From Gammaproteobacteria bacterium (lineage in GTDB: Bacteria; Pseudomonadota; Gammaproteobacteria; CBDBNL01; JAAOII01): a stretch of 64,000 bases of DNA. Where the stretch lies: positions 1,637,276-1,701,275 of the forward strand of contig OZ242292.1 in the NCBI GenBank assembly GCA_965207705.1. The letters run 5' to 3'. Below the pieces are notes generated by a model. It was not told the DNA's origin. It did not search any database and was given only the letters and a program-made list of their open reading frames with translations. Shown here in pieces: positions 1 through 62,447 of this stretch (positions are counted from its first letter, which is position 1; every line of letters starts with the position of its first letter). The position numbers and the translations under genes were made by a program.

Positions 1-162
1 CTCATTAAGTGCCGTTCGCTCCCCAGACGAACAGCTTTTGCCCTCAGCCGCAGTCCAGCAGTGTCATCGCGAAGGTAATCCGCTGGGGATTTGTGAATAA
101 TCCGTTGTTGGCAATAATACACTACTAATATACCAGGGGGGTATGAATGCTTGCTATACAGG

Positions 163-300
163 TTTGTAGGGGCGGAGGGCTTTGTTCATCCCCCCCTATA
201 TTCATCCCCCCCTATATTCATCCCCCCTGTATTCATCCTCCCTATATTCATTCTCTCTTGCTCCGCCCGCAAGATGCATAATACTCGCGACAAATCATCC
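163..300. repeat. REP-like palindromic element in which the hairpin loop is expanded by about 5 degenerate tandem copies of a 15-16 bp unit (TTCATCCCCCCCTATA)
   Basis: GTTTGTAGGGGCGGAG ... GCTCCGCCCGCAAGATGCATAATACTCGCGACAAA matches the REP core and tail found at about 9 other sites in this window. Between the two stem arms lies the unit TTCATCCCCCCCTATA repeated in tandem with decay. Confidence 0.8.
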
Positions 301-509
301 CCATGATTGCTTTGCCTGACTTATGCGTCAAACCTGTTCATAAGCTGTTTATAATCTGTGTAAAATCAACACAAATTTTGTCAATAACCTGTCAATAAAC
401 AATAAAAAATTGTTAATAGCTTGTTAGTATATGCTGCTAATGTTCAGCTAATACGCTGCTAATATGCTCATAATATAGCCCTTACACCCCCTCTTTGCGG
501 TATACCCCC

Positions 510-557: not shown

Positions 558-3146
558 ATGCAAATTGAAAAATATACAGACGGATTAAAAGAGGCATTGC
601 AGCAGGCACAGTCGCTGGCAATAGAAAAGGATAATAGCGCTTTGGAGCCAGCGCATCTATTGGCTTCTTTGGTGGATAGCTCTGATAGCTTGTCACATCA
701 ACTATTAAGCAAGCAAAATATATCTTTGGAAGGACTAAACCAAAAACTTGATGGCTTGTTCAGCGAACTTCCTAAAGTTAGTGGTGGCGGCGCTGATAAT
801 CTTGGTGCTTCGCGTGACTTTATTAAGGTTATCAATAAAACCGAAAAATATGCTAAAGACAATGGCGATAGCTATGTATCAGGAGAATGGGTGCTACCAG
901 CTATTTTGGATGCAGGCGGCAAAGAGAAAGATATACTCTATTCGCTGGGGCTGGACAAACAGCGACTGCTGGATGATATACAAAGCATTCGTGGCGATAC
1001 CAAAGTAGACAGCAGCAGCGACCAAAGTGGCGAGGATGCCTTGTCCAAGTATACGATTAATCTTACCGAACGCGCTGCCAAAGGGGATCTGGATCCTGTG
1101 ATAGGGCGCGATGATGAGATTCGCCGCACAATTCAAGTGCTGCAAAGAAGGCGCAAGAATAACCCAGTCCTTATAGGCGACCCAGGAGTTGGCAAGACCG
1201 CTATATTAGAGGGCTTGGCGCAACGGGTGGTGAATCGTGAAGTCCCTCAATCAATGCAATCCAAACAAGTATTATCATTGGATATGGGTTCGTTGCTTGC
1301 TGGCACCAAGTACCGCGGCGACTTTGAAGAAAGGATGAAGGCGCTATTAAAAGAACTCAACAAAAAACAAGGCGAGGTAATTCTGTTCATTGATGAGCTT
1401 CACACTTTGGTGGGAGCAGGCAAGGCGGAAGGGGCAATGGATGCTGGCAACATGCTAAAACCAGCTTTGGCGCGTGGCGATTTGCACTGCGTGGGCGCCA
1501 CCACGCTTAACGAGTATCGCCAGTACATAGAGAAAGATGCGGCGCTTGAAAGACGCTTTCAAAAGGTGTTTGTTGGTGAGCCAAGCCGCGAGGATACAGT
1601 GGCAATTCTTAGGGGGTTGAAAGAAAAATACGAGGTTCATCATGGAGTGGATATTACCGACCCAGCGTTGGTCGCCGCGGTGCGCTTATCAGAAAGGTAT
1701 ATAAGTGATAGGCGTTTGCCAGATAAAGCAATTGATTTGATGGATGAAGCAGCCAGCCGTATTCGCATGGAGATGGACTCCAAGCCCGAAAAATTAGATA
1801 TAGCCGAGCGCCAACTGATTAAATTGAAGATAGAACTTGAGGCATTAAAGCAAGAAGAGGACCCTTCCTCTAAGAAGCGTCTAAAAGAAGTGGAGCAAAT
1901 AATCACAGAGAAAGAGCGTGAGTTTGCTAATCTCAACGAGGTGTTCAAAAAAGAAAAAGCCCACTTGCAAGTTGCGCAAGACATTAAGTCGGAACTTGAC
2001 CAAGCGCGCAGCGAACGAGAAAGCGCTAATCGTGATGGCAACTTAGCCAAGGTTGCCGAGTTGCAGTATGGCACTATTCCATCTTTAGAAAAACGGCTTG
2101 AAGAAAGTTTGAAAGAGGCAAGCAATAAATCCGATACTAACGGAGTGCAAATACGTAGCAAGGTTACAGAAAATGAAATAGCCGAAGTGGTTGCCGCCTG
2201 GACGGGGATACCTGTAGCCCGCATGTTAAAAGGCGAGAAGGCGCGTCTGCTTGATATGGAGAAGCAATTGCAGCAGCAGGTTATCGGACAGGAAGAAGCA
2301 ATTAGCGCTGTCTCTGATACGATTCGCCGCGCTCGCTCGGGGATGGCAGATCCTGAGCGTCCCAATGGTTCGTTTTTATTCCTTGGTCCCACCGGCGTTG
2401 GTAAAACAGAAATGTGTCGCGCTATGGCAGAGTTTCTCTTTGATAGTCGTTCGGCAATGGTGCGCTTGGATATGTCAGAGTTTATGGAAAAGCATAGCGT
2501 AGCTCGTTTAGTGGGGGCGCCTCCTGGTTATGTTGGCTATGATGAAGGAGGGCAATTGACCGAGGCGGTTAGGCGGCGTCCCTATTCTTTAATTCTGTTG
2601 GACGAAGTGGAAAAAGCTCATCCTGATGTATTCAATATATTGCTGCAAGTTTTAGACGATGGACGTTTAACTGATAGTCAAGGACGCACTGTGGATTTTC
2701 GCAATGCTATTATTGTTATGACTTCAAACCTCGGCTCGGATGATATTCGTAAGTTCAAAGATGAGGAGTATGATGTTGTGCATGACATAGTAATGCAACA
2801 TGTTAATAAGCATTTTCGTCCCGAGTTTGTGAATCGGATTGATGAGATTATTGTATTTCGCAATCTGAAGAAAGAACAACTTAAGGCAATTGCTGATTTA
2901 CAGATTAAGCTACTACAACATCGCTTGACAGAGCAATATGAGATTAAGCTGAGTATAGCAGATGCTGCCATGGATGCTCTGATTAATATGGGCTTTGATG
3001 AGGTGTTTGGGGCGCGTCCGTTAAAACGCACTATCCAGAAGAATATTGAGAATCTACTTGCCGCAAAAATATTAGGAGGTGAGTTACAGCCCGGCAGCAG
3101 CGTTAAGGTGGACTACCTTGACAAACATTTCGTTATAGCAAAATAA
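558..3146 (+). CDS. clpB: ATP-dependent chaperone ClpB (Hsp100 disaggregase)
   Basis: 862 aa with an N-domain and two AAA+ modules: Walker A GDPGVGKT and GPTGVGKT, a middle coiled-coil region, and a C-terminal small domain. Diagnostic ClpB motifs are present throughout. Confidence 0.97.
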
Positions 3147-4703: not shown

Positions 4704-6179
4704 TTGAGCTATGTTATGTATAATCTTTTTAGAAAGACGAATGTCTTAGGACGTTGCGTGTTTAATGGGGATGCCACTCAGGTAGAACAAACTACCTCAA
4801 CTAACCTTTATATTAACTGCTACATAAGAATCAGGCGATATATACTTTTTCTTGTTACCCCTATAATTCTCTTCTCTTTAATCTCTTGTACCTTAGATGT
4901 AGCTAGCACTGATGATGAGTCGCCAACATCACCTCCCTCCAGCTCTAGTAGTGTTACTGCCAAAGGGTTGAGTTCTAATTATGTAAGCATATCCTGGGAT
5001 AGCGTCTTGGGTGCCACATACTATCAAGTATATAGCAGCACAGGGTTATTAGTTGCCACTGTTTTCCTTCCTGTCACTAATTATATTGTCACAGGTCTTT
5101 TGCCCAATACTGAATACATCTACCATGTAAGAGCATGTAATGTATCGGGCTGTTCAGATTTGACCAGCGTCTCCGCAACTACTGAGACCCCACCCATTAT
5201 CAATGGTACCGCTGAAGTTCCGCCCATCATCGATGTTACCGCGGAAGTTCCACCTGTCATTAATGTTACTGCTGAAGTTTCGCCTGTCATTAATGTTACT
5301 GCTGAAGTTCCAACTATCATCAGCAATGCCGCTGAACTTGCGGCTATTGGCACTAATAGCTCCACTTTATCTGGCGACTATATTCTAACTGGGAATATAG
5401 ACCTATCCACGATATCCAATTGGCGACCCATTGGCGATAACCCATCTAACGGATTTACTGGCAGTTTTGATGGTAATGGCTATAGCATAAGCGGGCTAAG
5501 TAGTTCGGGTTATGAATATGCCGGTTTGTTTGGCTATGTAAAAGACGCCTATATAAGTAATATTGGAGTTATAGCTGGCAATATATCCTCTTCTAATACT
5601 TTCGCTTCTTCAGCAGGAGGATTAGTTGGCTATGCTTATTATAGTGATATTAGCAACTCTTATGCAGTAGTTACGGACGATATATCCGCTTATGATGGAG
5701 GAGGGTTGGTTGGCTATGCTTATTATAGTGATATTAGCAACTCTTATGCAATGGTTGCGGATGATATATCTGCTTATGATAATTATGGTTCTTCGGCAGG
5801 AGGGTTGGTTGGCAAATTTAATGATAGTAAGATTAGTAATTCTTATGCAGTAGTTGCAGGTGATATATCTGCTTCTGATGATTACGGTTCTTTGGCGGGA
5901 GGGTTGATTGGCTATTTTGTTTACAGCTTTATATCAGTGGATTACGTTAATAAGGGCGCTCCAGTTAGTAATTCTTATTACAGCGCTAGCCGTGAATATT
6001 CGCAAGGGAGTTTTAGTAACTCTTTTGGAACTTATCAGACAGTTGATGAACTGCGCGCCTTAACTGCTGTGTCTACTGGCTGGGATGGGGCTATCTGGAA
6101 TTTTGGCACTGATGCCGACCTGCCAATGTTGGTTGCTACTCCTCTTACTGTGCCTTTGCCAAGTATTTTCCATGAATAG
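4704..6179 (+). CDS. surface lipoprotein with an FN3-like domain, five 10-aa tandem repeats and GLUG-motif beta-helix repeats (paralog 1 of 3)
   Basis: Internal lipoprotein signal (RIRRYILFLVTPIILFSLISC lipobox) at aa about 45-63. An FN3-like segment is followed by TAEVPPIINV x5. Then comes the conserved PTIISNAAELAAI...YILTGNIDLS...WRPIG...FTGSFDGNGYSISGL module and repeated GGLVGYAYYSDISNSYAVV (GLUG-type) units. The true start is unclear: no ATG, GTG or TTG lies immediately before the signal peptide. Confidence 0.75.
   Translation: MSYVMYNLFRKTNVLGRCVFNGDATQVEQTTSTNLYINCYIRIRRYILFLVTPIILFSLISCTLDVASTDDESPTSPPSSSSSVTAKGLSSNYVSISWDSVLGATYYQVYSSTGLLVATVFLPVTNYIVTGLLPNTEYIYHVRACNVSGCSDLTSVSATTETPPIINGTAEVPPIIDVTAEVPPVINVTAEVSPVINVTAEVPTIISNAAELAAIGTNSSTLSGDYILTGNIDLSTISNWRPIGDNPSNGFTGSFDGNGYSISGLSSSGYEYAGLFGYVKDAYISNIGVIAGNISSSNTFASSAGGLVGYAYYSDISNSYAVVTDDISAYDGGGLVGYAYYSDISNSYAMVADDISAYDNYGSSAGGLVGKFNDSKISNSYAVVAGDISASDDYGSLAGGLIGYFVYSFISVDYVNKGAPVSNSYYSASREYSQGSFSNSFGTYQTVDELRALTAVSTGWDGAIWNFGTDADLPMLVATPLTVPLPSIFHE
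5190..5339 (+). repeat. 5 tandem 30-bp repeats (encoding TAEVPPIINV-like decapeptides) inside GLUG paralog 1
   Basis: ccacccattatcaatggtaccgctgaagtt repeated with a few substitutions five times. The last unit diverges into the conserved IISNAAEL module, so it is a possible VNTR or contingency repeat. Confidence 0.85.
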
Positions 6180-9379: not shown

Positions 9380-10518
9380 TGAGTACTAATATTCTACGCC
9401 GTGACCGTTTTATAAAAAGGTCTTTTATTGCTCGGTTAACTCGTATTGAATCAACTAACCTTGATATCCCCTTAGTGCTGTTGCTTGCGCTCCTTATGGT
9501 TATTAGTTTGTTCACTATATATAGTGCCAGTGGAGGCAATATAATATTAGTATCCAAGCAAGCAATATTTTTTGTACTCGGCTTTGTTATAATGTTTACA
9601 GTGGCAAGGTTTGAGATATATCATTTTCGCAGATTTGCTTTTATTCTGTATATTGCCGGGCTATTTTTATTAATCCTAACGTTATTTATTGGGCCCGAGA
9701 TAAATGGTTCTAAACGTTGGATTAATCTTGGCTTGGTTAATTTTCAGCCAGCAGAATATATGAAAATAGTTCTGCCATTAACTATCTGCTGGCTGCTAAC
9801 CTACAAGCCCCTTCCCATTAGTTGGTATCAATTAGCTGCCATAATATGTGTAGTTTTTGTTCCAGTTGCTTTGGTGTTTTTACAGCCAGATTTAGGGACG
9901 GCGATAATCATAGTATCTTCCGCCGCCTGCCTCATTTTTCTTGCTGGCATACGGATGAAAATAGTTGTGCCTATGTTAATTATTTTTGCTGCGAGTTTGC
10001 CTTTGGCTTGGCGTTACATTTTGCTTGATTATCATAAGAAGAGAATACTTTCTTTTGTTGACCCAGATTCCGACCCATTGGGTTCTGGTTGGAGCTTAAT
10101 TCAATCCAAGATAGCTGTGGGAACTGGAGGGGTGTTTGGCAAGGGATGGGGTAATAGTGATCAAGCTAACTATGAGTTCTTGCCCGAGACCCATACAGAT
10201 TTTATTTTCTCAGTATTTGCGGAAGAGAATGGTCTTTTAGGGGTTTTGTTATTATTATCAATTTACTTTTTAGTTATTATTCGCAGCTTTTATATTGCCA
10301 TGCAAGCAAGGGATTCATTTGAAAAGCTATTCTGTGGAGGTTTGATTTTTATTTTTTCCAGCTATATACTTATTAATATAGGAATGGTTACAGGTTTGCT
10401 GCCCATAGTGGGAGTTCCCTTGCCTTTGATAAGTTATGGCGGAACTTCTTTGGTTACTGCTATGGGGGCGTTTGGTATCCTTATGTCGGTTGCAGTTCAT
10501 AGTCACAAGGTAACATAA
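9379..10518 (+). CDS. mrdB: peptidoglycan glycosyltransferase RodA (SEDS family)
   Basis: 379 aa polytopic FtsW/RodA/SpoVE-family protein immediately after mrdA, overlapping its stop. Confidence 0.92.
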   Translation: MSTNILRRDRFIKRSFIARLTRIESTNLDIPLVLLLALLMVISLFTIYSASGGNIILVSKQAIFFVLGFVIMFTVARFEIYHFRRFAFILYIAGLFLLILTLFIGPEINGSKRWINLGLVNFQPAEYMKIVLPLTICWLLTYKPLPISWYQLAAIICVVFVPVALVFLQPDLGTAIIIVSSAACLIFLAGIRMKIVVPMLIIFAASLPLAWRYILLDYHKKRILSFVDPDSDPLGSGWSLIQSKIAVGTGGVFGKGWGNSDQANYEFLPETHTDFIFSVFAEENGLLGVLLLLSIYFLVIIRSFYIAMQARDSFEKLFCGGLIFIFSSYILINIGMVTGLLPIVGVPLPLISYGGTSLVTAMGAFGILMSVAVHSHKVT

Positions 10519-10544
10519 ATTTACTTGTTCCTCTCTTGCGACGC

Positions 10545-10876
10545 AATTCTGGTATGTTGCTTGAATTCACGACGCATTTCTGGTATGGTGTTTGAACGAA
10601 CGATGATGGTCTGTAGGGGCGGAGCTGCGCTCCGCCCGCAAAATGCATAATACTCGCGACAAACCATCAGCATGCTCGCATCGCTCTGCCCGCAAAATGC
10701 ATAACACTCGCGACAAACCCTCGCTATGCTCGCGACCTTCTTATATGTGATGCATAAATTCTTGCGACACCCGTTTGATATAATGCATAAATTCTTGCAA
10801 CACAGGTCTGTAGGGGCGGAGCTGTGCTCCGCCCGCAAAATGTATAATACTCGCGACAAACTCTCGGCATGCTCGC
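10545..10876. repeat. composite REP cluster: two full hairpin cores (10608-10660, 10802-10855), one core-less tail unit and a 27-bp tandem repeat (10549-10604)
   Basis: GGTCTGTAGGGGCGGAGCTGCGCTCCGCCCGCAAAATGCATAATACTCGCGACAAACC occurs twice, with a partial copy in between. Direct repeats CGACGCAATTCTGGTATGTTGCTTGAA and CGACGCATTTCTGGTATGGTGTTTGAA are also present. A 112-aa minus-strand ORF here is an artefact of the repeats. Confidence 0.85.
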
Positions 10877-10924
10877 CTTATTTATTAATTTATTATTAAG
10901 AATTATTTTATAATAACTGTAGTT

Positions 10925-12208
10925 ATGAATATAAGAACATTATCCAAAGTCCCTAGTATTGGAGTAGCGTATGCAAGTAACTCTTTTATAAACAGCCCAG
11001 TTATAAACAGCTCGTCTCAAGAATCAGCAAAATATTTTTTACAAAATCAATTACCAAATGCTGAGTATCATCTTATTCCTAAGTCAGAGCTTATCAAAAA
11101 TAAAAGTGTTTTTATTGCTGAGGTGCTAGGTGATAGCATGGAAAAATTTAATATATATAGCGGTGATGCTGTTTTATTCGAAAAAAATAAAAAAGTAGAA
11201 AATGGTGATATCGTAATAATGGAAATCCAGGGTAATTTATTAATTAAACAGTACAAAGAAACTAAAGAATACATACATATATATTCTCATGACAAAGATA
11301 AAGTTAATAAAATTAAAAAAGATAGAGTTAAAATTATTGGTAAAGTATTTAATATTATTGAGTTGGCAGAAAGAAAAGAAGAAACAGCGCAAATCCCTAA
11401 ACTCGTAACAAATCAAATTGTTCATAGCGAAGCAATTAAATTTATGAAACAGCTGCCAGAACATTCAATTGATTTGACAGTAACATCTCCCCCTTATGAT
11501 AATTTACGCAGCTATGATGGCTATAACTTTGATTTTGAAGGCATTGCAACAGAATTATTTAGAGTTACCAATAAAGGGGGTGTGTTGGTTTGGGTTGTGG
11601 GCGACAAAATAAAAAATGGAAGTAAAACATTAACCAGTTTCAGGCAGGCAATTACTTTTCAAGAACTGGGGTTTTGTGTGCATGATATCATGATATATAA
11701 GAAGAAAAATACACCATTCATGCGTTCTAACGGATACACTAACTGCTTTGAATTTATGCTGGTATTAGGTAAAGGGAAACCAAAAACATTTAATCCAATT
11801 AAAATCAAGACAGTTAGACAAGGGTTAGAGTTACTGACTCATAACAAAGGTCCTGATGGTATAAATAAAAAAACCTTGGCTATGCTAAATAGCAAGAAAA
11901 CCAAAACTAATATTTGGGAATATGCTGTTGGCTTACATGGATCAACTAGTGATAAAGAGGCGTTTCAACACCCAGCCATATTCCCCGAGCAATTGGCAGA
12001 GGATCATATATTATCTTGGAGTAAGCCAGGTGACCTAGTATTTGATCCAATGTGCGGTTCTGGGACAACTTGTAAAATGGCAGCTAAGCATAAAAGACGC
12101 TATTTGGGATGTGATATTTCTTATAAATATGTGGCAATAGCAAGGAATAGAATAAAGGTAGTGGAGGATGCTTTATCTTTGTTTGATGAATTGGATGGCC
12201 CTTCTTAA
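10925..12208 (+). CDS. fusion protein of an N-terminal LexA/UmuD-like S24 peptidase domain and a C-terminal beta-class DNA N4/N6 methyltransferase (orphan; SPPY motif suggests N4-cytosine or N6-adenine)
   Basis: aa about 60-150 carry the S24 signature (VLGDSMEKF...GDAVLF...NGDIVIMEIQGNLLIKQYK...VKIIGKVFNI, with Ser in GDSM and Lys in LIKQ). aa about 170-425 carry DNA methylase N-4/N-6 motifs in beta order: motif IV DLTVTSPPY, then HPAIFPEQL, then motif I FDPMCGSGTT. The gene is strongly AT-rich relative to its neighbours, and no restriction endonuclease gene is adjacent. Confidence 0.7.
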   Translation: MNIRTLSKVPSIGVAYASNSFINSPVINSSSQESAKYFLQNQLPNAEYHLIPKSELIKNKSVFIAEVLGDSMEKFNIYSGDAVLFEKNKKVENGDIVIMEIQGNLLIKQYKETKEYIHIYSHDKDKVNKIKKDRVKIIGKVFNIIELAERKEETAQIPKLVTNQIVHSEAIKFMKQLPEHSIDLTVTSPPYDNLRSYDGYNFDFEGIATELFRVTNKGGVLVWVVGDKIKNGSKTLTSFRQAITFQELGFCVHDIMIYKKKNTPFMRSNGYTNCFEFMLVLGKGKPKTFNPIKIKTVRQGLELLTHNKGPDGINKKTLAMLNSKKTKTNIWEYAVGLHGSTSDKEAFQHPAIFPEQLAEDHILSWSKPGDLVFDPMCGSGTTCKMAAKHKRRYLGCDISYKYVAIARNRIKVVEDALSLFDELDGPS

Positions 12209-12261: not shown

Positions 12262-12346
12262 CTTGCGACGGTGGTCTGTAGGGGCGGAAGCATATATACC
12301 CCCCTTGGCTCCGCTCGCATCGTACTTATGTATAATACTTGCAATG
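12262..12346. repeat. REP-like element, degenerate, with an insertion in the loop
   Basis: CTTGCGACGGTGGTCTGTAGGGGCGGAAGCATATATACCCCCCTTGGCTCCGCTCGC...TATAATACTTGC matches the REP core with a loop insertion related to the CTATATTCATCCCCC module. Confidence 0.7.
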
Positions 12347-13021: not shown

Positions 13022-13170
13022 TGTCGCGAGCTTTATACATTTTGCGGGCGGAGCGCAGCTCCGCCCCTACAGACCTATGTCGCAAGAATTCAAACAACAT
13101 ATCAAATGGGAGTCGCAAGAATTCAAACAACATATCAAATGGGCGTCGCAAGAATTTATGCGTCATAAAT
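13022..13170. repeat. REP element in reverse orientation followed by 2.6 tandem copies of a 33-bp unit
   Basis: GTCGCGAGCTTTATACATTTTGCGGGCGGAGCGCAGCTCCGCCCCTACAGACC is the reverse complement of the REP core. After it, GTCGCAAGAATTCAAACAACATATCAAATGGG(A/C) occurs twice, then a truncated copy. A 68-aa plus-strand ORF here is a repeat artefact. Confidence 0.85.
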
Positions 13171-24727: not shown

Positions 24728-24756
24728 TCTGTAGGGGCGTGAGCTGCGCTCCGCCC
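24728..24756. repeat. truncated REP core (hairpin only) between convergent operons
   Basis: TCTGTAGGGGCGTGAGCTGCGCTCCGCCC, followed by a second 11-bp-stem inverted repeat ATGAGGAGAGC-TA-GCTCTCCTCAT. Confidence 0.7.
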
Positions 24757-27880: not shown

Positions 27881-29539
27881 TTATTTTAGTTCAATTAAAC
27901 ACACCCCATAAGGAGGCATGTTGATTATATCTGCGGTTAATTTTGTGTTGTTAAAAAAACTATGCGGAGTTATTTGCTTGCCTTGATAAGGAGTTTTAAA
28001 TTCCTTGTTATGTGGCGAATAATTAAATACGCATAATAATTTTTTATTATTATGTTCGCGCACAAACGCGAAAATATCCTTATCTGCTTCAACCAACTTC
28101 ATACTGCCTTGCTGAAGAACCGGCTCTTGTTTTCTCCATTGCAACATTGCCCTTGTAAACCAAAGCATTGATGACTTGTCTTTTTCTTGTAAATCAGCTG
28201 CCATTTTTAGATGTTGCTTGGGCACTGGCAACCAGGGCTTTTCTTGTGAGAAGCCGCCATACTTTTCATCAGATGTCCAGGGCATGGGTGTGCGACAACC
28301 ATCCCGCCCTTTATACTCGGGCCAGAACTGTTTGCCATAAGGATCTTGCAAATCCTCAAAAGCAATATCCGCTTCTGGCAATCCTAATTCCTCGCCTTGA
28401 TAGATGCAAGGGACGCCACGCATGGTTAATAACAAGGTCATCATAAAGCGGGTATAATCTGCTTGCAATTCGGGAGGGACTCCTTCCCCCTCATCACCCC
28501 CTCCATTATATCCCCCTCCATTATATCCCCCGCGGCTCGCCACCCGCGTCACATCGTGATTGCTAAAAGCCCAACACGGATAACCGTCTCCAAGGTTTTC
28601 ATCTAAATAGGTAAAAACTTTATACAAGTCGGCAGCATTAAATTCGCTTAGAAAGCAAAAGATATAAACCGAGTGCAATCTCTTGCCCGACTTAGTATAC
28701 AGGCACAAGGTATCAAGCTGCTCATTACCGCCAACTTCACCCACCATAAAACTACCAGGATACTTGTCTGCTACAGCGCGCAATTTTTCTATGAACGGCA
28801 GGTTTCTTTTATAATCAATGTCGTAAAGATGGTCTTGCATGAAGTATGGGTTAACCTTAGTCCCACCAAAAAAATTATCTTCCTTTACTGGCGGGTTGCT
28901 GCGCAGTTGCGGGTCTTGAGTATAGCAATGCGCGGTATCCAATCTAAATCCATCCACTCCTTTACTAAGCCAAAAATCAGCAACCTCAAGTATTGCCTTT
29001 TGCGTTTCCTCATTGTTAAAATTCAGGTCGGGCTGTTCCTTGAGAAACTGATGCAAGTAATACTGAGCGCGGCGCGGTTCCCATTGCCAGGCGCTGCCAC
29101 CAAAAATAGATAGCCAGTTATTGGGGGGAGAACCATCTGCTTGGGCATCCGCCCAGACATAGCGCTCATCTTTGCCTTGTTTAGCAACCGCCTGCTTAAA
29201 CCAATCGTGTTGATCCGATGTATGATTATATACTTGGTCAATAATTATCTTCATCCCCTGATTATGGGTTTGCTGGACTAACTCATCAAAATCCTTATTG
29301 CTGCCGAAAAGCGAGTCCACTGCGCAATAGTCCGCAATATCATAGCCGTAATCCTTCATGGGCGACTTAAAGAAAGGGGAAAGCCACAGCTTATCAATGC
29401 CAAGGTCTTTTAGATAGCCGAGTTTAGCGGTAATGCCAGGAAGGTCTCCAACTGCATCGCCGTTTGATGAAAAAAAGCTGCGTGGGTATATTTGATATAT
29501 AACCTCATTTTGCCAACTTGTATTTAGAACTGTTGTCAT
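27881..29539 (-). CDS. GH13 alpha-glucosidase (oligo-1,6-glucosidase / sucrose-isomaltulose hydrolase type) with a Gly/Tyr/Asn-rich insert
   Basis: GH13 subfamily signatures are present: QIYPRSF, DGVGDLPGI, GIDKLWLSPFFKSP, DQVYNHTS, GVDGFRLDTA, MVGEVG, and FSNHD at the final catalytic region. An unusual insert GGYNGGGYNGGGDEGEG is also present. Confidence 0.88.
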   Translation of the reverse strand: MTTVLNTSWQNEVIYQIYPRSFFSSNGDAVGDLPGITAKLGYLKDLGIDKLWLSPFFKSPMKDYGYDIADYCAVDSLFGSNKDFDELVQQTHNQGMKIIIDQVYNHTSDQHDWFKQAVAKQGKDERYVWADAQADGSPPNNWLSIFGGSAWQWEPRRAQYYLHQFLKEQPDLNFNNEETQKAILEVADFWLSKGVDGFRLDTAHCYTQDPQLRSNPPVKEDNFFGGTKVNPYFMQDHLYDIDYKRNLPFIEKLRAVADKYPGSFMVGEVGGNEQLDTLCLYTKSGKRLHSVYIFCFLSEFNAADLYKVFTYLDENLGDGYPCWAFSNHDVTRVASRGGYNGGGYNGGGDEGEGVPPELQADYTRFMMTLLLTMRGVPCIYQGEELGLPEADIAFEDLQDPYGKQFWPEYKGRDGCRTPMPWTSDEKYGGFSQEKPWLPVPKQHLKMAADLQEKDKSSMLWFTRAMLQWRKQEPVLQQGSMKLVEADKDIFAFVREHNNKKLLCVFNYSPHNKEFKTPYQGKQITPHSFFNNTKLTADIINMPPYGVCLIELK

Positions 29540-32970: not shown

Positions 32971-33576
32971 ATGGGAAAGAACGAACTAGAGAATAGAGAT
33001 AACTGGCAAACAGAAAGCGGCGCTAATGCACTAAATCTAGAAGAAATTTTCTTCTTAATATTTAAGAAAGAATTTCAAAAACCCGCCAATCTGAATTTTC
33101 AAATAAGAAAGAACCCCAAAGAATTTAAGAATATCTATAAAAATGTTAAACTCCCAAAAGGTGTTATTAAAGAAATATATAATCCTTCTAAAGATTACTT
33201 ACATGGCATCGCAATAGACTTTGCCATAGATAACCTACTAACGAATAAAACCTTATATATTGAAATAAAAAGACAAGATGGTTGGGTTGAGGGCATGCCT
33301 TCAAGTGCTGGCAGAGGGAACGCCCATGAAAGACTTTGTAAGTTTTTTACACCGGGATTACTAGGTGTTTTAAGAAAAGAAGGCAAGATAGATAACCTAC
33401 ACCTGCCTTTCTGGGCTGTTTTTGCTGGCAATATAACAAGAGATCCTAAAAGGGTAAGAGAGATAACTCTCTGGTTCCAAGGATATAATGATAATTTTTT
33501 TATGTGGCGTGATACAAAGAATAGTACCAAGCTTATCAATCATTTTAATAAAAAGTTAAAGCCCTTGCTCAGATAA
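32971..33576 (+). CDS. type II restriction endonuclease, EcoRI/MunI family (PD-(D/E)XK)
   Basis: 201 aa with the motif IDFAID ... LYIEIKRQDGWVEG ... SAGRGNAHER, which matches the catalytic D...E-x-K and the downstream GNAxER signature shared by EcoRI, RsrI and MunI. It converges on, and overlaps the 3' end of, an adenine methyltransferase gene, and lies in a very AT-rich island. Confidence 0.7.
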   Translation: MGKNELENRDNWQTESGANALNLEEIFFLIFKKEFQKPANLNFQIRKNPKEFKNIYKNVKLPKGVIKEIYNPSKDYLHGIAIDFAIDNLLTNKTLYIEIKRQDGWVEGMPSSAGRGNAHERLCKFFTPGLLGVLRKEGKIDNLHLPFWAVFAGNITRDPKRVREITLWFQGYNDNFFMWRDTKNSTKLINHFNKKLKPLLR

Positions 33577-35732: not shown

Positions 35733-36462
<730 letters not shown>

Positions 36463-42084: not shown

Positions 42085-43986
42085 ATGGATGTATATGATA
42101 CTGGTACCTATTTAATAGGTAAGAAATCAGGAGGTATAATTGGAGCTACAACTGGAGGCGATATTGTCAGCAATAATCACCACGGTTTTATATTCAAAAG
42201 AATATCCCCACTGCTACTTTTACTAACCTGCGTTTTGCTTCTAACTGCTTGTGCAAGTGGTAAAAGTGGTGAAAGTAATCCTGTTACAGATATTATGGAA
42301 GATGCTCCAAATTTTGAAGATTCTCCAAATTTTGAAGATGCTCCAAATTTTACTGCCTCTGTTTATAGTTTTGTAGCCATCTCCATTGATTTAGAAGGTA
42401 AAGTATTAGGCAGAGTTGAGGCAACAATTAGTGCGAATAACTCTAACCAAGCCGCTCCCAACTACGCTTATGCTGCGGATAATGGCGCAGCCGATGATAT
42501 TTTTACCCTTAACCCCACCACTGGAGACATTGCATTAAAACGCTCGCTTGTTACTGCGGATACAGGGGATTATGTTTTTGCTGTCATAGCTAAACAAAGG
42601 GGAAATTCTGCTGAAGGACGCGCTAATGTTACTGTAAAGATATTAGATATAGAAGGAGATGAGGATATGGATGGCTTCATGAATGCTTATGATGTAGCGC
42701 CAATGAATAGGACAGTTAATGTCAGCGGTACTGGCATTCCTGGCGACCCTTATATTATTAGCAATATCTATCAGCTGCAGGCAATTGACGGAGTGGATCA
42801 TAAACATAGATATCTTAACAGAACCTCCCTCGCTACTAATGGTCAGTGGTTATATGGCGCTAACCGCACTGCTCAGTTACAAAGTAGTTATCAGCTCAGC
42901 AATGATATAAATGCAAAGGTAACGCGCGACTGGAATGGAGGTGAGGGCTTTAACCCGATTGGTGATTGCGGCGGCACTTCATGTTATGCTACTCCAATAA
43001 ATCCTTTCAGTGGGGTTTTTAACGGTGCTGGTTTTACGGTGGATAATTTATTTATAAATCGCACAGAAGATGGTGAGATGAGAGGCAATATCGGCTTATT
43101 CGCTTTAACTGGTAATGCTAAGATAATGAATTTGGGGCTGGAGAATTTGAACATAACCGTGTCAGTTCTTGCTAGAGAACTTGCTACGGGAATTGGGGGA
43201 TTGATAGGAGGAACGCGAGAGGAATTACAGCAGTTAGCCGCTAATTTAAATCATGTTTATGTGACTGGGAATATACAAGCTATAGACAAGTCACCTAATT
43301 CAAACAATTCCATATATGTAGGCGGGTTAATCGGTGAGGCAATAATTAATATAGATATTAAAAATTCTTATACAATTGTTAATCTTATTGGAGGCAGCCA
43401 CCAAGGAGGTTTATTGGGGGTAAATCTTGCTAATACAAAGGTATTTAAATCATATTCACTTAATAGAATAAGTGGAACTGGGACTGGAGGAGGGTTGTTA
43501 GGAGCTGACAGGCTTAGATTTTCTCCCACTGCCTCTTATACAGTGAGTTATGCAAATACTTCTGATGATGTATTCAGCTTGGTGGGTTTGAAGGTTACAG
43601 GCAGACCAGTAGATAGCAATACCTCTTATTGGCAGAGTGAAATGGAGGGAGGGATGGTTAAAGGGGTAGTAAGAAGCTTAGATGGCACTGCGTCTAAGGG
43701 ATTAAGTGTGGCGCAACTGCAGAATTGTGAATTAGATGGGGTTATGATTGATGGCACATCTGCAGGAGTTTGTGCTGGGCTGTTTGCTGAAGGTACGGAT
43801 GCCGATCCTCTGTGGGGCGATCAAACTGAGGATGGAGTTACCACTGGTTGGGACTTTTTACCTGTTGGTGAATATCCCTATCTGTTTGCCAACGATGACG
43901 AAGGCAGAGACCTATTGCCAACAGTTGCTGAACAAAGATGCCAACGCAATAAAATTTTCTACAACCTCCCCTGCGCCACCGAATAA
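42085..43986 (+). CDS. surface lipoprotein with calcium-binding Asp-rich motifs and GLUG-motif beta-helix repeats (paralog 2 of 3)
   Basis: An internal lipoprotein signal (FKRISPLLLLLTCVLLLTAC) is followed by an EDAPNF x3 repeat. Then comes the conserved DPYIISNIYQLQAI...WNGGEGFNPIG...FSGVFNGAGFTVDNL module and G-G-L-I/L-G repeats. Confidence 0.75.
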   Translation: MDVYDTGTYLIGKKSGGIIGATTGGDIVSNNHHGFIFKRISPLLLLLTCVLLLTACASGKSGESNPVTDIMEDAPNFEDSPNFEDAPNFTASVYSFVAISIDLEGKVLGRVEATISANNSNQAAPNYAYAADNGAADDIFTLNPTTGDIALKRSLVTADTGDYVFAVIAKQRGNSAEGRANVTVKILDIEGDEDMDGFMNAYDVAPMNRTVNVSGTGIPGDPYIISNIYQLQAIDGVDHKHRYLNRTSLATNGQWLYGANRTAQLQSSYQLSNDINAKVTRDWNGGEGFNPIGDCGGTSCYATPINPFSGVFNGAGFTVDNLFINRTEDGEMRGNIGLFALTGNAKIMNLGLENLNITVSVLARELATGIGGLIGGTREELQQLAANLNHVYVTGNIQAIDKSPNSNNSIYVGGLIGEAIINIDIKNSYTIVNLIGGSHQGGLLGVNLANTKVFKSYSLNRISGTGTGGGLLGADRLRFSPTASYTVSYANTSDDVFSLVGLKVTGRPVDSNTSYWQSEMEGGMVKGVVRSLDGTASKGLSVAQLQNCELDGVMIDGTSAGVCAGLFAEGTDADPLWGDQTEDGVTTGWDFLPVGEYPYLFANDDEGRDLLPTVAEQRCQRNKIFYNLPCATE

Positions 43987-43991
43987 ACCAC

Positions 43992-44250
43992 GCATAAATA
44001 CTTGGTATATAGGTCTGCTGTAGGGGCGGAGCCAGGGGGGATGAATATAGGAACCGCCCGCAAAATGCCTAACTCTCGCGATGTACCATCGGGATACTCG
44101 CAACATACCCCTGGTATGATGCATAAATACTTGCATTGTACTTATGTTCGGTGCATAAATACTTGGTATATAGGTCTGTAGGGGCGGAGCTGCGCTCCGC
44201 CCGCAAAATGCCTAAATCTTGCGATGTACCATCGGGATGCTCGCGACACC
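43992..44250. repeat. REP pair: one element with the 15-nt module inserted into the hairpin loop, one canonical element
   Basis: The first copy is GGGGCGGAGCC-AGGGGGGATGAATATAG-GAACCGCCCGCAAAATGCCTAACTCTCGCGATG, whose loop carries the reverse complement of the CTATATTCATCCCCC unit seen at 163-300. The second copy is canonical: GGTCTGTAGGGGCGGAGCTGCGCTCCGCCCGCAAAATGCCTAAATCTTGCGATG. Confidence 0.85.
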
Positions 44251-48605: not shown

Positions 48606-48848
48606 CGGGCGTAGCAAGAATTTGGACGTCATGCAGGAGTTCATCGCGAGCATGGTTATGATTTATCGCAAGAGTTAGGCATTTTGCGGGCGGAGCGCAG
48701 CTCCGCCCCTACAGACCTATATACCAAGAATTTAAGTATTATACCAAGGGTGTTTTGCAAGAATTCTGATGGTTTGTTGCGAGAGTTAGGCATTTTGCGG
48801 GCGGAGCGCAGCTCCGCCCCTACAGACCTATATACCAAGAATTTTTAA
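48606..48848. repeat. tandem pair of REP elements (reverse orientation) with shared flanking modules
   Basis: GCGAGAGTTAGGCATTTTGCGGGCGGAGCGCAGCTCCGCCCCTACAGACCTATATACCAAGAATTT occurs twice about 120 bp apart, immediately downstream of the dprA stop. Confidence 0.85.
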
Positions 48849-59317: not shown

Positions 59318-59450
59318 ATGCATTTTGAATTCTTGGAACGATGGTCTGTAGGGGCGGAGCTGCGCTCCGCCCGCAAGGTGCTCAATACTTGCGACACGCT
59401 ATCCCCATGCTCGCGATAACACTATTGCCATGCTCCGCCCGCAAAATGCC
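59318..59450. repeat. REP element (full core + tail, and a second core-less tail)
   Basis: GGTCTGTAGGGGCGGAGCTGCGCTCCGCCCGCAAGGTGCTCAATACTTGCGACACGCTATCCCCATGCTCGCGA followed by TGCTCCGCCCGCAAAATGCC. Its 3' end supplies the -35 TTGACT of the downstream promoter. Confidence 0.85.
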
Positions 59451-59478
59451 TTGACTTTAATTCATAATCATTTATAAT
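59451..59478 (+). promoter_or_regulatory. near-consensus sigma70 promoter (TTGACT-N16-TATAAT) upstream of GLUG lipoprotein paralog 3
   Basis: -35 at 59451-59456 and -10 at 59473-59478. The ORF-track ATG at 59477 overlaps the -10, so the lipoprotein start at 59510 is favoured. Confidence 0.55.
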
Positions 59479-59509
59479 GTTATATATGAATATATCCAGA
59501 TTTATACCA

Positions 59510-62332
59510 ATGAAAACATCAGCGCTACTATTTTCGCTAATTTGCATCTTGACGCTGGCTGCCTGTGCTGGCGGAGGCGGCGGTGGCGGAGGTAGCACAC
59601 CAGGAGGCAAACCTAATCCCCCTCCCGCTGGAATTGGCGTATTAAACTTACGGGTTATCCCTGATGAAACCAACGCTACTCTTATATGGAATAACCCTGA
59701 TGTGAATATAACCAGCATTAATATAACCTACCACAACAAAAGTACCCCTGATGCTTTACAATACTTCCCTTTAATAACAGAGGAAGATAGCATTAGCTCC
59801 AATGCAACAAACGTAACTAAAGTGATAACTAATTTAGAAGAGGGGTCAATCTATATCTTTAATGTTCGTTTGGAACTGGGCGGTGCCGATGAAAATAAAA
59901 CTGTGAATAGAGAATTATCCGAAACCCGCTTAATTGGTCCCAACCTTGACCAAGACGAATATGCGGATGCCGACCTTCTTGAAACGGATGAAGATGGAGA
60001 TGGCGTCAATGATAATCTGGATGCTTTCCCTCGCAATACCACTTTGTCCGCCTTTGCGGTTACAGAATTATCCGCACGTCCTGGCAACGGCGAGGTCACC
60101 CTTAGCTGGAATAATCCAGTTGCAGAAATAGCCAGCATTAGTATAAGCTACCAAAGAGATGATTTTGTTGGTCAACTTATGATGAATAGCAGCGCTCAAA
60201 TAACCTCTGGCGAACAGAATGTGCAAGAAACCATAGAAGGACTAACCAACGGACAATCCTATACTTTTAATGTTACCTTGACATTAACTGGCGATGATGC
60301 TGCTAAGAAAGTAATGGTAGCATCCACTACTGCAACTCCTGGCGCCTTTTCAGTAATAGATTTAGCAGCGTCTCCTGGAGCTGGCAATGTAACTCTTAAC
60401 TGGAATAATCCAGATGCAGATATAGCCAGCATTAGCATAAGCTATGAAGTTACTGGTTCTGGCATGTCCACAACAGTGGGAGCTAGCAACACTGGCAGAG
60501 GTGCGAGTGTGGAACAAACCATAACTGGACTAACCAACGGACAATCATATACTTTCAATATTAGCTTAACATTGCAAAATGATGATGCTGGCAGGGAAGG
60601 CATGGCGGTATCTGACACCGCAACTCCTAACGTCTTTGCAGTAACAGATTTAACAGCGATTCCTAACGACAGCAGCGTCACTCTTAGCTGGATAAATCCA
60701 GATGCAGATATAGCCAGCATTAGTATAAGCTATTATGAAGTTACTGGTTCTGGTGCGTCCACAACAGTGGGAGCAAGCAACATTGGCAGGGAAGCGAGTG
60801 TGGAAGAAACCATAGATGGCTTAGATAACGAAGTATCCTATAACTTCACTGTTAGTTTAACTTTAGGTGGTGACATCTATGCTGGCAGGGAAGGACCTGC
60901 GTTATCTATTATTGTGGGTATTGGACCCAATTTAGATGGAGACGAATATGCTGATTTTGTGGATAATGACGTTGATGGCGATAGTTTTATCAATGCTGAT
61001 GACGTAGATGATGACGGCGATGGCCTGATAGAGATTGCCACTGCGGCGCAACTTGACCAGATTCGCTATAATCTATTGGGCAGTAGTTTGAATACAAGCG
61101 ATGGAGTAGCCGGCGATGCCAGCGGTTGCGGCGGGCTAAACGACATCAGCGAATGCAACGGCTATGAGCTTACACATAATATATCCCTTGACGGCTATCC
61201 CAACTGGGTGCCAATTGGCAGCTGCGGAGACTTCGAGGGTACTGGCGAGAATCCTTGTACTACTGTGAGTTCATTATTCAGCACTACTTTTGATGGCAAT
61301 GGTTGGACAATTAGCAATCTTACTATAACAAACCCTGCTGCCCCCTACAACAACGCGGCAGGATTGTTTGGTGCAATCAGCCCTGATTCTATTCTGCGTA
61401 ATGTTCATATACGATCTGCCAACATTAGCGGTGGTGACAGTAATGTGGGGCTGTTGGTTGGTTATGCACAAAGAGCAAGAATTAGCAATAGTTCCGCAGA
61501 AGGAGAGGTTATGGCTACTGTGAGTGGGAAGAAGGTCGGCGGTCTGGTTGGTGATGGGGCGAACGCCAATATAACTTCATCTTATGTGACTGGCGGGTCT
61601 ATCAGCGGGCTTAGTAGTATTGGTGGTCTGATTGGTGCTGGAAATTTTGCCGTGATTACATCATCTTATGCGATGAATATTACTGTCCTTAGTGATAACA
61701 ATAATGCTGGCGGTCTGGTTGGTGCTGGAAATTTTGCCATCATTACATCATCTTATGTGGTTGGCGGGTCTGTCATCGGGCTGGATAGAGTTGGCGGTAT
61801 GGCTGGTAATGGGGAGAGCAGTACCAAGATTACTTTGTCTTATGTGGGGGACTTGTTTATCAGTGGAAGGAGTAATATTGGCGGCATGGTTGGGGGTGGT
61901 AATAGCATAATCACTTCGTCTTATGTGGGAGGTGGTGTTGACATCATAGGTACCGGTAGGAACATCGGCGGTATGATTGGTTCTGGGGATGGCGCTACCA
62001 TCAAATCGTCTTATGTTGCGGCTGATACTATCAGCGGGACTAGTCATTTCGGCGGTATACTTGGTTTTGGGACTCTTAATGCTGCCAGCTCCAACTCCTA
62101 TTGGAATAACGAGACGAGCGGTATAACTGGTGGAAGTGTGGCCGGTAAAAGCGAAGGCAAAACCACTGATGAATTGCGGAACCCAGAAATGTTTGTAGGG
62201 AGTATTTATGCAACTTGGGAGGATGATATGTGTGGTGGCGATGATGACTCCATTGCCTGGGATTTAGGCAACTCAACCCAATACCCCGCCCTCAACTGCA
62301 CTCCCGGCGGCAAAGATGCCCAGCGTCCATAA
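59510..62332 (+). CDS. large surface lipoprotein with a poly-Gly linker, four FN3-like about 97-aa repeats, thrombospondin-type-3-like Asp-rich Ca-binding motifs and about 8 GLUG-type beta-helix repeats (paralog 3 of 3)
   Basis: Signal MKTSALLFSLICILTLAAC (lipobox), then GGGGGGGGS. Repeats LSWNNPDADIASISISY...TGSG...TITGLTNGQSYTFN occur four times. GPNLDGDEYADFVDNDVDGDSFINADDVDDDGDG follows. Then comes the conserved IEIATAAQLDQIRYNL...WVPIG...FDGNGWTISNL module and repeated IGGLIGAGNFAVITSSYV units. Confidence 0.8.
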   Translation: MKTSALLFSLICILTLAACAGGGGGGGGSTPGGKPNPPPAGIGVLNLRVIPDETNATLIWNNPDVNITSINITYHNKSTPDALQYFPLITEEDSISSNATNVTKVITNLEEGSIYIFNVRLELGGADENKTVNRELSETRLIGPNLDQDEYADADLLETDEDGDGVNDNLDAFPRNTTLSAFAVTELSARPGNGEVTLSWNNPVAEIASISISYQRDDFVGQLMMNSSAQITSGEQNVQETIEGLTNGQSYTFNVTLTLTGDDAAKKVMVASTTATPGAFSVIDLAASPGAGNVTLNWNNPDADIASISISYEVTGSGMSTTVGASNTGRGASVEQTITGLTNGQSYTFNISLTLQNDDAGREGMAVSDTATPNVFAVTDLTAIPNDSSVTLSWINPDADIASISISYYEVTGSGASTTVGASNIGREASVEETIDGLDNEVSYNFTVSLTLGGDIYAGREGPALSIIVGIGPNLDGDEYADFVDNDVDGDSFINADDVDDDGDGLIEIATAAQLDQIRYNLLGSSLNTSDGVAGDASGCGGLNDISECNGYELTHNISLDGYPNWVPIGSCGDFEGTGENPCTTVSSLFSTTFDGNGWTISNLTITNPAAPYNNAAGLFGAISPDSILRNVHIRSANISGGDSNVGLLVGYAQRARISNSSAEGEVMATVSGKKVGGLVGDGANANITSSYVTGGSISGLSSIGGLIGAGNFAVITSSYAMNITVLSDNNNAGGLVGAGNFAIITSSYVVGGSVIGLDRVGGMAGNGESSTKITLSYVGDLFISGRSNIGGMVGGGNSIITSSYVGGGVDIIGTGRNIGGMIGSGDGATIKSSYVAADTISGTSHFGGILGFGTLNAASSNSYWNNETSGITGGSVAGKSEGKTTDELRNPEMFVGSIYATWEDDMCGGDDDSIAWDLGNSTQYPALNCTPGGKDAQRP
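60052..60920 (+). repeat. three tightly similar tandem repeats of about 290 bp (FN3-like modules) inside GLUG paralog 3; a fourth diverged copy lies at about 59640-59950
   Basis: Units start at about 60052, 60347 and 60634 (TTTGCGGTTACAGAATTATCC, TTTTCAGTAATAGATTTAGCA, TTTGCAGTAACAGATTTAACA) and share long near-identical stretches, for example AGATGCAGATATAGCCAGCATTAGTATAAGCTAT. Confidence 0.85.
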
Positions 62333-62338
62333 AGGGTC

Positions 62339-62447
62339 CTGCGACGCAGGTCTGTTGTAAGGGCGGAGCCAGGGGGAATGAATATAGTTTCCGCCCGCAA
62401 GATGTCTAAAACTTGCGACGGACTGTCGGCATACTCGCGATAACATA
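62339..62447. repeat. REP element with the 15-nt module inserted in the hairpin loop
   Basis: GGTCTGTTGTAAGGGCGGAGCC-AGGGGGAATGAATATAG-TTTCCGCCCGCAAGATGTCTAAAACTTGCGACGG...CATACTCGCGATAAC has the same architecture as the first copy at 43992-44250. Confidence 0.8.

Follow-up and report, generated by a model that had tools for sequence, protein, structure and literature searches.

The stretch of DNA analysed here (64,000 nt, hereafter the window) belongs to a gammaproteobacterial lineage with genomes of 1.8-2.2 Mb and about 41% GC. It opens with the 3' end of a gene whose orthologues in the related loci L105-L113 encode a large surface protein of the cadherin/Glug type, as judged from Cadherin and Glug Pfam matches, and continues with clpB. 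A REP hairpin is located between the two genes, 66 nt beyond the upstream stop codon and about 290-300 nt ahead of the clpB start, and its loop is filled by a tandem array of five short units. The coordinates of these features are collected in Table 1, together with the other REP copies of the window and the array states observed at the same site in the relatives.

Table 1. Features of the clpB-upstream site, REP copies in the window and alleles of the array in related genomes
Feature	Position	Strand	Basis or remark
3' end of upstream gene, frame ...PLGICE, stop codon 98-100	window 1..100	+	reading frame; gene runs off the window
Module-like CCAGGGGGGTATGAATGC, reverse orientation, outside any stem	window 133..150	+	resembles the 12288-12310 loop variant
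REP head GTAG (166-169) and left stem arm GGGCGGAG (170-177)	window 166..177	+	sequence reading
Tandem array in the loop, forward orientation, five 15-16-nt units	window 181..257	+	TRF and sequence reading
Right stem arm CTCCGCCC	window 261..268	+	sequence reading
Asymmetric REP 3' tail GCAAGATGCATAATACTCGCGACAAATCATCCCCATGATTGCTTTGCCT	window 269..317	+	common to other copies
clpB, downstream gene	window 558..3146	+	NCBIfam TIGR03346, 1291.7 bits
Canonical REP (GTAG, 9-bp stem, TGC loop)	window 10613..10637	+	first in a head-to-tail cluster downstream of rodA
Canonical REP with TGT loop	window 10810..10834	+	
REP with variant forward-type loop module AAGCATATATACCCCCCTTGGCT	window 12278..12316	+	mutated right arm CCGCTC
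Canonical REP	window 13046..13070	-	
Imperfect REP, GGGGCGTGAGC...GCTCCGCCC	window 24731..24756	+	1-nt insertion in left arm; without family tail
REP with single reverse-orientation module, loop AGCCAGGGGGGATGAATATAGGAA	window 44020..44059	+	
Canonical REP	window 44178..44202	+	
Canonical REP	window 48688..48712	-	
Canonical REP	window 48799..48823	-	
Canonical REP	window 59348..59372	+	right-arm-only partial unit after it, ~59424-59440
REP with single reverse-orientation module, loop AGCCAGGGGGAATGAATATAGTTT	window 62357..62396	+	head GTAA
Allele without REP	L108 (the MAG), L112		
Allele with 1 unit	L107		
Allele with 2 units	L111		
Allele with 4 units	L106		
Allele with 5 units	window, L113		
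Allele with 6 units	L105, L110		

The element at 166-268 reads GTAG-GGGCGGAG-GGC-(TTTGTTCATCCCCCCC / TATATTCATCCCCCCC / TATATTCATCCCCCC / TGTATTCATCCTCCC / TATATTCATTCTCTC)-TTG-CTCCGCCC and is followed by the tail GCAAGATGCATAATACTCGCGACAAATCATCCCCATGATTGCTTTGCCT, which is missing along with the hairpin in L108 and L112. The loop unit is CTATATTCATCCCCCC. By reading, the units span 181-196, 197-212, 213-227, 228-242 and 243-257, the last two being decayed, and Tandem Repeats Finder (TRF) reported a repeat at 185-251 with a period of 15, 4.3 copies and 92% matches, in agreement with the original prediction of a forward unit repeated about five times with decay at 163-300. The module-like sequence upstream of the element, CCAGGGGGGTATGAATGC, was compared with the reverse complement of the 12288-12310 variant (CCAAGGGGGGTATATATGC), from which it differs at two aligned positions and by a 1-nt indel. 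A shorter form of it, AAGGGGGGTAT, is kept in the REP-less allele of L108, and the sequence at 133-150 is probably a relic of an earlier REP with a module at the same place.

Scans for promoter-like and terminator-like signals gave nothing above shuffles over the element at 166-268; a conserved promoter-like region, CCCCCTTGA...CACTATAAAT, was found at about 500-540, upstream of clpB. Rfam and ARAGORN searches of the 64-kb window returned two tRNAs and nothing else. A reading of the element as an IHF site or an intrinsic terminator was dropped, as neither the consensus nor a terminator-like signal was found there.

Thirteen oriented REP copies were counted in the window, every one intergenic. 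One of them is overlapped by a GTG ORF at 12271, whose homologues and NCBIfam match begin about 34 codons later. The canonical hairpin GGGCGGAGC-TGC-GCTCCGCCC occurs exactly at 10617, 13046 (-), 44182, 48688 (-), 48799 (-) and 59352 and with one loop mismatch at 10814, so that seven copies with at most one mismatch are present, against zero in shuffles of the window. Besides the module-bearing REPs, ten window copies consist of the canonical 9-bp stem with a 3-nt loop or are partial. The 15-nt module CTATATTCATCCCCC was found exactly at 196 and 212 (+) and at 44036 (-) and with one mismatch at 62373 (-); allowing three mismatches, 15 matches were observed in the window where 2.05 were expected. 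The earlier description of the family was right, with positions off by 0-12 nt: six canonical sites were recovered as exact copies, while the copy placed at 10802 (10814) has a TGT loop and the one placed at 24728 is imperfect. The reverse-complement units announced for the loops near 44 kb and 62 kb are single modules, and the related insert expected in the 12262-12346 copy is GCATATATACCCCCC, at 12288-12310.

Nearly all oriented stems in the window and its relatives are headed by GTAG, with a few variants (GTAA, ATAG), and the copies have a common asymmetric context, ...GGTCTGTAG / hairpin / GCAARATGCMTAA..CTCGCGAC...ATGCTCGC. Since both loop orientations were defined against the same flanks (5' GGTCTGTAG, 3' GCAARATGCATAA...), the difference between them is real and is not produced by reading the other strand. 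TRF also detected periodicities of 54 nt and 33 nt in REP clusters of the window (10628-10733 and 13079-13156). At 28497-28531, within a long minus-strand ORF (27881-29539), lies a perfect 15-nt tandem repeat, CCCCCTCCATTATAT x 2.3, which has a C-run and an AT-rich part like the loop module.

The module was followed through 319 kb of DNA, comprising the window, pieces of a related metagenome-assembled genome (MAG) and the related loci; eight clpB loci (L105-L108 and L110-L113) were reached via ClpB homologues at 98-100% identity and L109 via the RAYT homologue P0121. The oriented census of these 319 kb returned 45 canonical copies, 11 copies with the module in reverse orientation (R), all single, and 7 with a single module in forward orientation (F), and arrays were confined to the clpB site, besides one two-unit copy at L105 5357. 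With up to two mismatches the module core occurs in REP loops only, save one match at the atpF ribosome-binding site; it thus recurs at other loci and in other genomes and is not restricted to the sites first noted. The match at atpF lies at window 35985-36000, where AGGAGGATGAATAT, which covers the start of the ATP synthase B gene together with its ribosome-binding site, resembles the reverse module GGGGGGATGAATAT, and is probably due to chance.

The two classes differ in more than the direction of the module. The F consensus is GGGGCGG-AGGG-CTATATTCATCCCCCC-TTGCT-CCGCCC and the R consensus GGGGCGG-AGC(C/A)A-GGGGGGATGAATATAG-GAA-CCGCCC, so that a loop block of about 20 nt, GG-CTATATTCATCCCCCC-TT in F and its reverse complement in R, stands where canonical copies have three nucleotides. 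A 27-nt block, CTATATTCATCCCCCC-T(T/G)GCT-CCGCCC, which corresponds to the module plus one arm, is common to F and the reverse complement of R. F copies have the junctions GGAGGG...TTGCT and R copies AGCCA or AGCAA...GGAA, GTAT, GTTT or GGAT; the other junction, outside the common block, is class-specific, being GGAGGG in F versus GGAA, GTAT, GTTT or GGAT in R. On account of these differing far junctions, the idea that F and R are linked by plain inversion between the arms was rejected. The 3-nt loops of the canonical copies (TGC, CAT, CGT, TGT) are never inverted in the 319 kb, and no strictly orthologous copy with a flipped loop was seen among the loci compared. Class-specific junctions and the lack of inverted canonical loops suggest that F and R are old, separately propagated subfamilies and are not the product of the ongoing flipping hinted at in the original prediction; from their sequences we infer that the hairpin was rearranged long ago, once or a few times, to give the two classes. 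The R loops are strongly conserved across loci, with seven identical copies, which could reflect selection instead of recent spread. F and R are placed alike relative to the genes upstream of them, which makes a single strand-specific role of the module less likely.

The spacers that carry REPs are very plastic. Downstream of rodA, the number of hairpins is 0 in L107 (18200-18300) and L108 (22220-22400), 2 in the window (10500-10925), 5 in L105 (21250-21840) and 6 in L106 (18160-18920). The MAG locus L072 is not a flipped-loop orthologue of window 1-320: the clpB-upstream region of the MAG is L108, without a REP, and L072 is a separate locus orthologous to L110 3628 and L111 3218.

A GTAG head, a perfect GC-rich stem and a 3-nt loop make up the architecture of the GTAG REPs associated with RAYT/TnpAREP proteins (PMC3733652, PMC8266576). 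A scan of 185,579 species genomes with the head and stem pattern TGTAGGGGCGGAG...CCGCCCGC returned, among the matches listed, Acidobacteriota, Chloroflexota, Clostridia and others, mostly unrelated phyla, indicating that the hairpin type is widespread. In the loci L001-L104, a stem of GTAG + GGGGCGGAG...CTCCGCCC, mostly with a CTTGCC or CTTGTC loop, was repeated across phyla, the taxa including Acidobacteriota, Thermoanaerobaculia, Anaerolineae, Clostridia and Elusimicrobium; these sequences point to a REP type of very wide distribution, perhaps tied to one RAYT lineage. Among the matches listed, the module and the family tail were found together in one genome, the 1.86-Mb MAG OZ242303.1, named 'Gammaproteobacteria bacterium'. 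A literature search for this accession found no paper, and scans of the JGI metagenome collection with the module plus arm and with the hairpin plus tail gave no match, the lineage being absent there.

A transposase gene was found in the relatives. On the minus strand of the MAG piece L006, an ORF of 199 aa (1919-2518) contains the motifs HIH and YIKYNP; this ORF and that at L109 10001-10507 scored 31.2 bits on Pfam Y1_Tnp (cut-off 23). The best match of P0121, a homologue 95% identical, was NCBIfam REP_Tyr_transpos with 62.6 bits, under the cut-off of 80 bits, and more distant homologues bear the JGI name RayT. Searching the PDB with the RAYT sequence yielded nothing but a spurious match. The gene is flanked by inverted REPs: in L109 by 9850 (+) upstream and by 10592 (-) and 10704 (-) downstream, and in L006, where it is on the minus strand, by an F-type copy at 2593 (-) on its 5' side and by 1839 (+) on its 3' side. 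Thus, a search for a RAYT, suggested in the original prediction, succeeded in the relatives, whereas none was found in the 64-kb window. The RAYT cluster at 90% identity has 12 members, located on four of the large related contigs and fragmented on one of these; no member was seen on the 2,057,196-bp contig bearing an identical ClpB (P0001, 100%). On the 1,793,685-bp contig, the genome of L107 with its single-unit allele, the cluster is represented only by fragments of 91 aa and 58 aa, which suggests that the RAYT gene is degraded there.

A rival reading takes the loop for an active cargo: module-bearing hairpins would be mobilised as RAYT substrates, and their two orientations would result from repeated hairpin-mediated inversion of the loop, the stem arms recombining or serving for a template switch, in the manner of chloroplast minute inversions. 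Small inversions associated with hairpins are known in plastomes, and both loop classes occur here at several unrelated loci with near-identical loops. The F-type copy of the MAG directly adjoins its RAYT gene (L006 2545-2593), the first position downstream of rodA is canonical in L105 and R-type in L106 and L113, and L110 3628 and L111 3218 are single-module F copies where the orthologous L072 has a single-module R copy and a canonical copy. Nevertheless, we regard such an active process as unlikely, because a simple arm-to-arm flip would not interconvert two classes with class-specific junctions, the canonical loops are never inverted and the module weakens the predicted stem. Some F copies, moreover, probably spread with the duplicated 3' end of a surface-protein gene. 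RAYTs acting on perfect palindromes with 3-nt loops tolerate no mutation at certain loop positions in vitro (PMC8266576), and by analogy the module-bearing copies may be poor substrates, although the F copy that flanks the RAYT gene of the MAG counts against this reading.

The copy number of the array was compared at the orthologous clpB-upstream site of nine genomes, the window and eight relatives that are 92-98% identical to it in the DNA they share. The site is polymorphic, with 0 to 6 units (Table 1). All multi-unit alleles have the same first unit (TTTGTTCMTCCCCCC; TTTGTTCMT...) and the same last unit (TATATTCATTCTCTC), while the number of inner units differs from allele to allele, and in L105 and L110 they have been homogenised to TGTATTCATCCCCCC. 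Conserved edge units and variable or homogenised inner units point to slippage or unequal exchange within the array; we infer slippage as its mechanism, in line with one of the two routes proposed originally. Over 11 kb, L111 and the window share 98.4% identity, yet they have 2 and 5 units, so the array evolves far more quickly than the DNA around it. A VNTR or minisatellite is marked by a unit repeated head to tail and by a copy number that varies at an orthologous site, and both were found here.

Several of the relatives are long-read contigs of 3x-9x coverage, in which homopolymer lengths and single-base differences may be unreliable. It is, however, hardly credible that the array and its copy-number differences were produced by long-read errors in a low-complexity, C-rich region. 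C6 and C7 run lengths do differ between units and alleles, but the array is present in at least seven independent assemblies, including complete contigs of 2.0-2.2 Mb, and its alleles differ by whole 15-nt units with common edge units. Homopolymer errors neither create nor remove 15-nt units, and whole-unit differences are unlikely to be artefacts.

The sample ERZ25069764, from which L108-L113 derive, contains at least six related contigs with 3x-24x coverage, showing that several strains or species of the lineage co-occur in one sample. Five of these contigs bear distinct ClpB alleles with four array states (0, 2, 5 and 6 units), and the sixth (L109) bears the RAYT locus. This variation within a single sample would be expected of a contingency locus, in which a functional VNTR tunes the 3' end of the surface-protein mRNA, its stability or read-through, or transcription into clpB, and gives heritable expression diversity among co-resident strains. 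F-type copies are found preferentially just downstream of paralogous surface-protein genes, and the G-runs of the minus strand would be compatible with a long-loop G-quadruplex on the template strand. On the other hand, about 300 nt separate the array from the clpB start, whereas the promoter-like region lies at about 500-540, no promoter or terminator signal above shuffles overlaps it, and two relatives are entirely without a REP at the site. To our knowledge, contingency repeats are located in promoters or coding regions and not in the loops of 3' intergenic hairpins. A role of this kind seems quite improbable to us.

Large paralogous surface proteins are encoded at several places in the window (4704-6179, 42085-43986 and 59477-62332) and in many copies upstream of clpB in L105-L113. 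They carry cadherin, fn3 and Glug domains and internal DNA repeats of 30-288 nt, and the number of their genes upstream of clpB differs among relatives. The conserved 3' ends of these genes often directly precede forward-type REPs, which makes it probable that some REP copies spread by gene duplication. The window also contains an ORF (10925-12208) in which a LexA/S24-peptidase-like N-terminus is joined with an N6/N4 DNA methyltransferase domain and a MunI-type restriction endonuclease gene (32971-33576). The order of the methyltransferase gene and the neighbouring GST gene varies among relatives.

The effect of the module on the hairpin was evaluated by folding calculations. The canonical hairpin, folded as single-stranded DNA, gave -13.2 kcal/mol (z = -3.8), with 0 of 200 shuffles as good, and single-module R (-8.2) and F (-9.9) copies were no better than shuffles. 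In the predicted fold of the five-unit copy (166-268), the REP stem that characterises GTAG REPs is missing, the partner of the G-rich left arm being the first C-run and not the right arm. According to these predictions the module weakens the REP stem and the array replaces it, and such a pairing would disable the REP hairpin. An RNA fold including the upstream G-run (135-141) reached -47 kcal/mol (z = -2.7). Covariation of the stem was observed in five copies adjoining RAYT genes, which have GGGGCGA...TCGCCC, a two-sided change from G-C to A-T with pairing kept.

The L113 orthologue of the element (9567-9680), on a contig of only 7x coverage, shows a C-to-G change of the first C-run (CCTCCGCCCC) and a G-to-C change of the original right arm (CTCCCCCC), so that the left arm and the first unit form a new perfect 10-bp stem. 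These paired changes look as if two similar direct sequences had been swapped by templating or conversion, and the 10-bp stem fits the alternative pairing of the left arm with the C-run.

The minus strand of the array contains four G-runs, three of 6-7 Gs and one GGG, spaced 9-12 nt apart. Moreover, the F and R modules are perfectly complementary over 16-20 nt and have the same orientation downstream of genes, so that F (C-rich) and R (G-rich) transcripts could pair loop to loop. If this were true, the REP family would be a built-in sense/antisense network joining the 3' UTRs of surface-protein and housekeeping genes, and the clpB-upstream array of 1-6 units would act as a multivalent, strain-variable sponge or target. 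Such pairing in trans, or a long-loop G-quadruplex roadblock formed by the G-rich strand, is in our estimation very improbable.

The family resembles the GTAG REPs and REPtrons, in particular REPSm of Stenotrophomonas maltophilia (group 3), in its GTAG head, its perfect GC-rich stem of 8-9 bp with a 3-nt loop, its many extragenic copies, mostly downstream of genes and in head-to-tail clusters, and, in the relatives, a Y1 HUH transposase gene between inverted REPs (PMC3733652, PMC8266576). It differs from them in that about a third of the copies have the block of about 20 nt for the 3-nt loop, in two mirror-image classes, one copy having turned into a tandem array, and in that the hairpin is embedded in a longer asymmetric unit. 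Several loop types within one family and genome, with long loops tolerated, are known from GTAG-3 of enterobacteria and GTAG-14 of Bradyrhizobium, whose loops reach 27 bp (PMC3733652). The long loops of these families are self-complementary extensions of the stem (PMC3733652), whereas the block described here is not self-complementary, occurs in both orientations and has been tandemly amplified. Copies with unusual loops were discarded in that survey (PMC3733652). The claim that such loops are not typical of REPs holds for the expansion into a tandem array and for the existence of two mutually inverted loop classes, which are unusual, but not for loop variants as such.

The array behaves like bacterial VNTRs and minisatellites, which change by slipped-strand mispairing, in its 15-16-nt unit, its 0-6 copies among close strains, its diverged edge units and its homogenised inner units; unlike VNTRs of promoters or coding sequences, it is placed within the loop of a mobile-element-type hairpin. 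Chloroplast minute inversions offer another parallel, one short sequence in either orientation between inverted-repeat arms, but here each class has junctions of its own and repeated flipping at a single locus was not observed, so that F and R look like the outcome of one old event followed by the spread of both forms. BIMEs and REPINs likewise combine REPs with other conserved motifs in clusters of strain-variable unit number. In BIMEs, however, the accessory motifs are located between REPs and not within the loop, and REPINs are inverted REP doublets, whereas the clusters described here are mostly head-to-tail.

Taken together, the data are best explained by placing the element in a REP family of the RAYT type with a GTAG head. 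The canonical form of this family, a 9-bp GC stem with a 3-nt loop, is part of an asymmetric unit of about 100-150 nt, often found in head-to-tail clusters. A minority of the copies make up the two subfamilies, with the block of about 20 nt replacing the 3-nt loop; these may have been born of one or a few old rearrangements and then have spread or been homogenised like other REPs. The F copy between the surface-protein gene and clpB would have gained a duplication of its unit, and since then the array would have evolved as a minisatellite, replication slippage or unequal exchange leading to 1-6 units in strains that are 92-98% identical. We consider neutral slippage in a hairpin thereby deprived of its REP fold to be the probable course of events. 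The array is most likely selectively neutral, and on present evidence it reveals no new mechanism or function.

Most work regards REP hairpins as small and rigid, with short loops, and copies whose loops are odd are left out of surveys. The results reported here indicate that a conserved 20-nt loop block, in two forms that mirror each other, is tolerated within one REP family and that a REP loop can seed a fast-evolving minisatellite. Repeat-finding pipelines with a fixed loop length will therefore undercount REP families. The canonical, single-module F, single-module R and array-bearing copies constitute a natural test set for how strictly a RAYT reads the loop, and the array could serve as a marker for typing the coexisting strains of this uncultured, host-associated lineage of Gammaproteobacteria.
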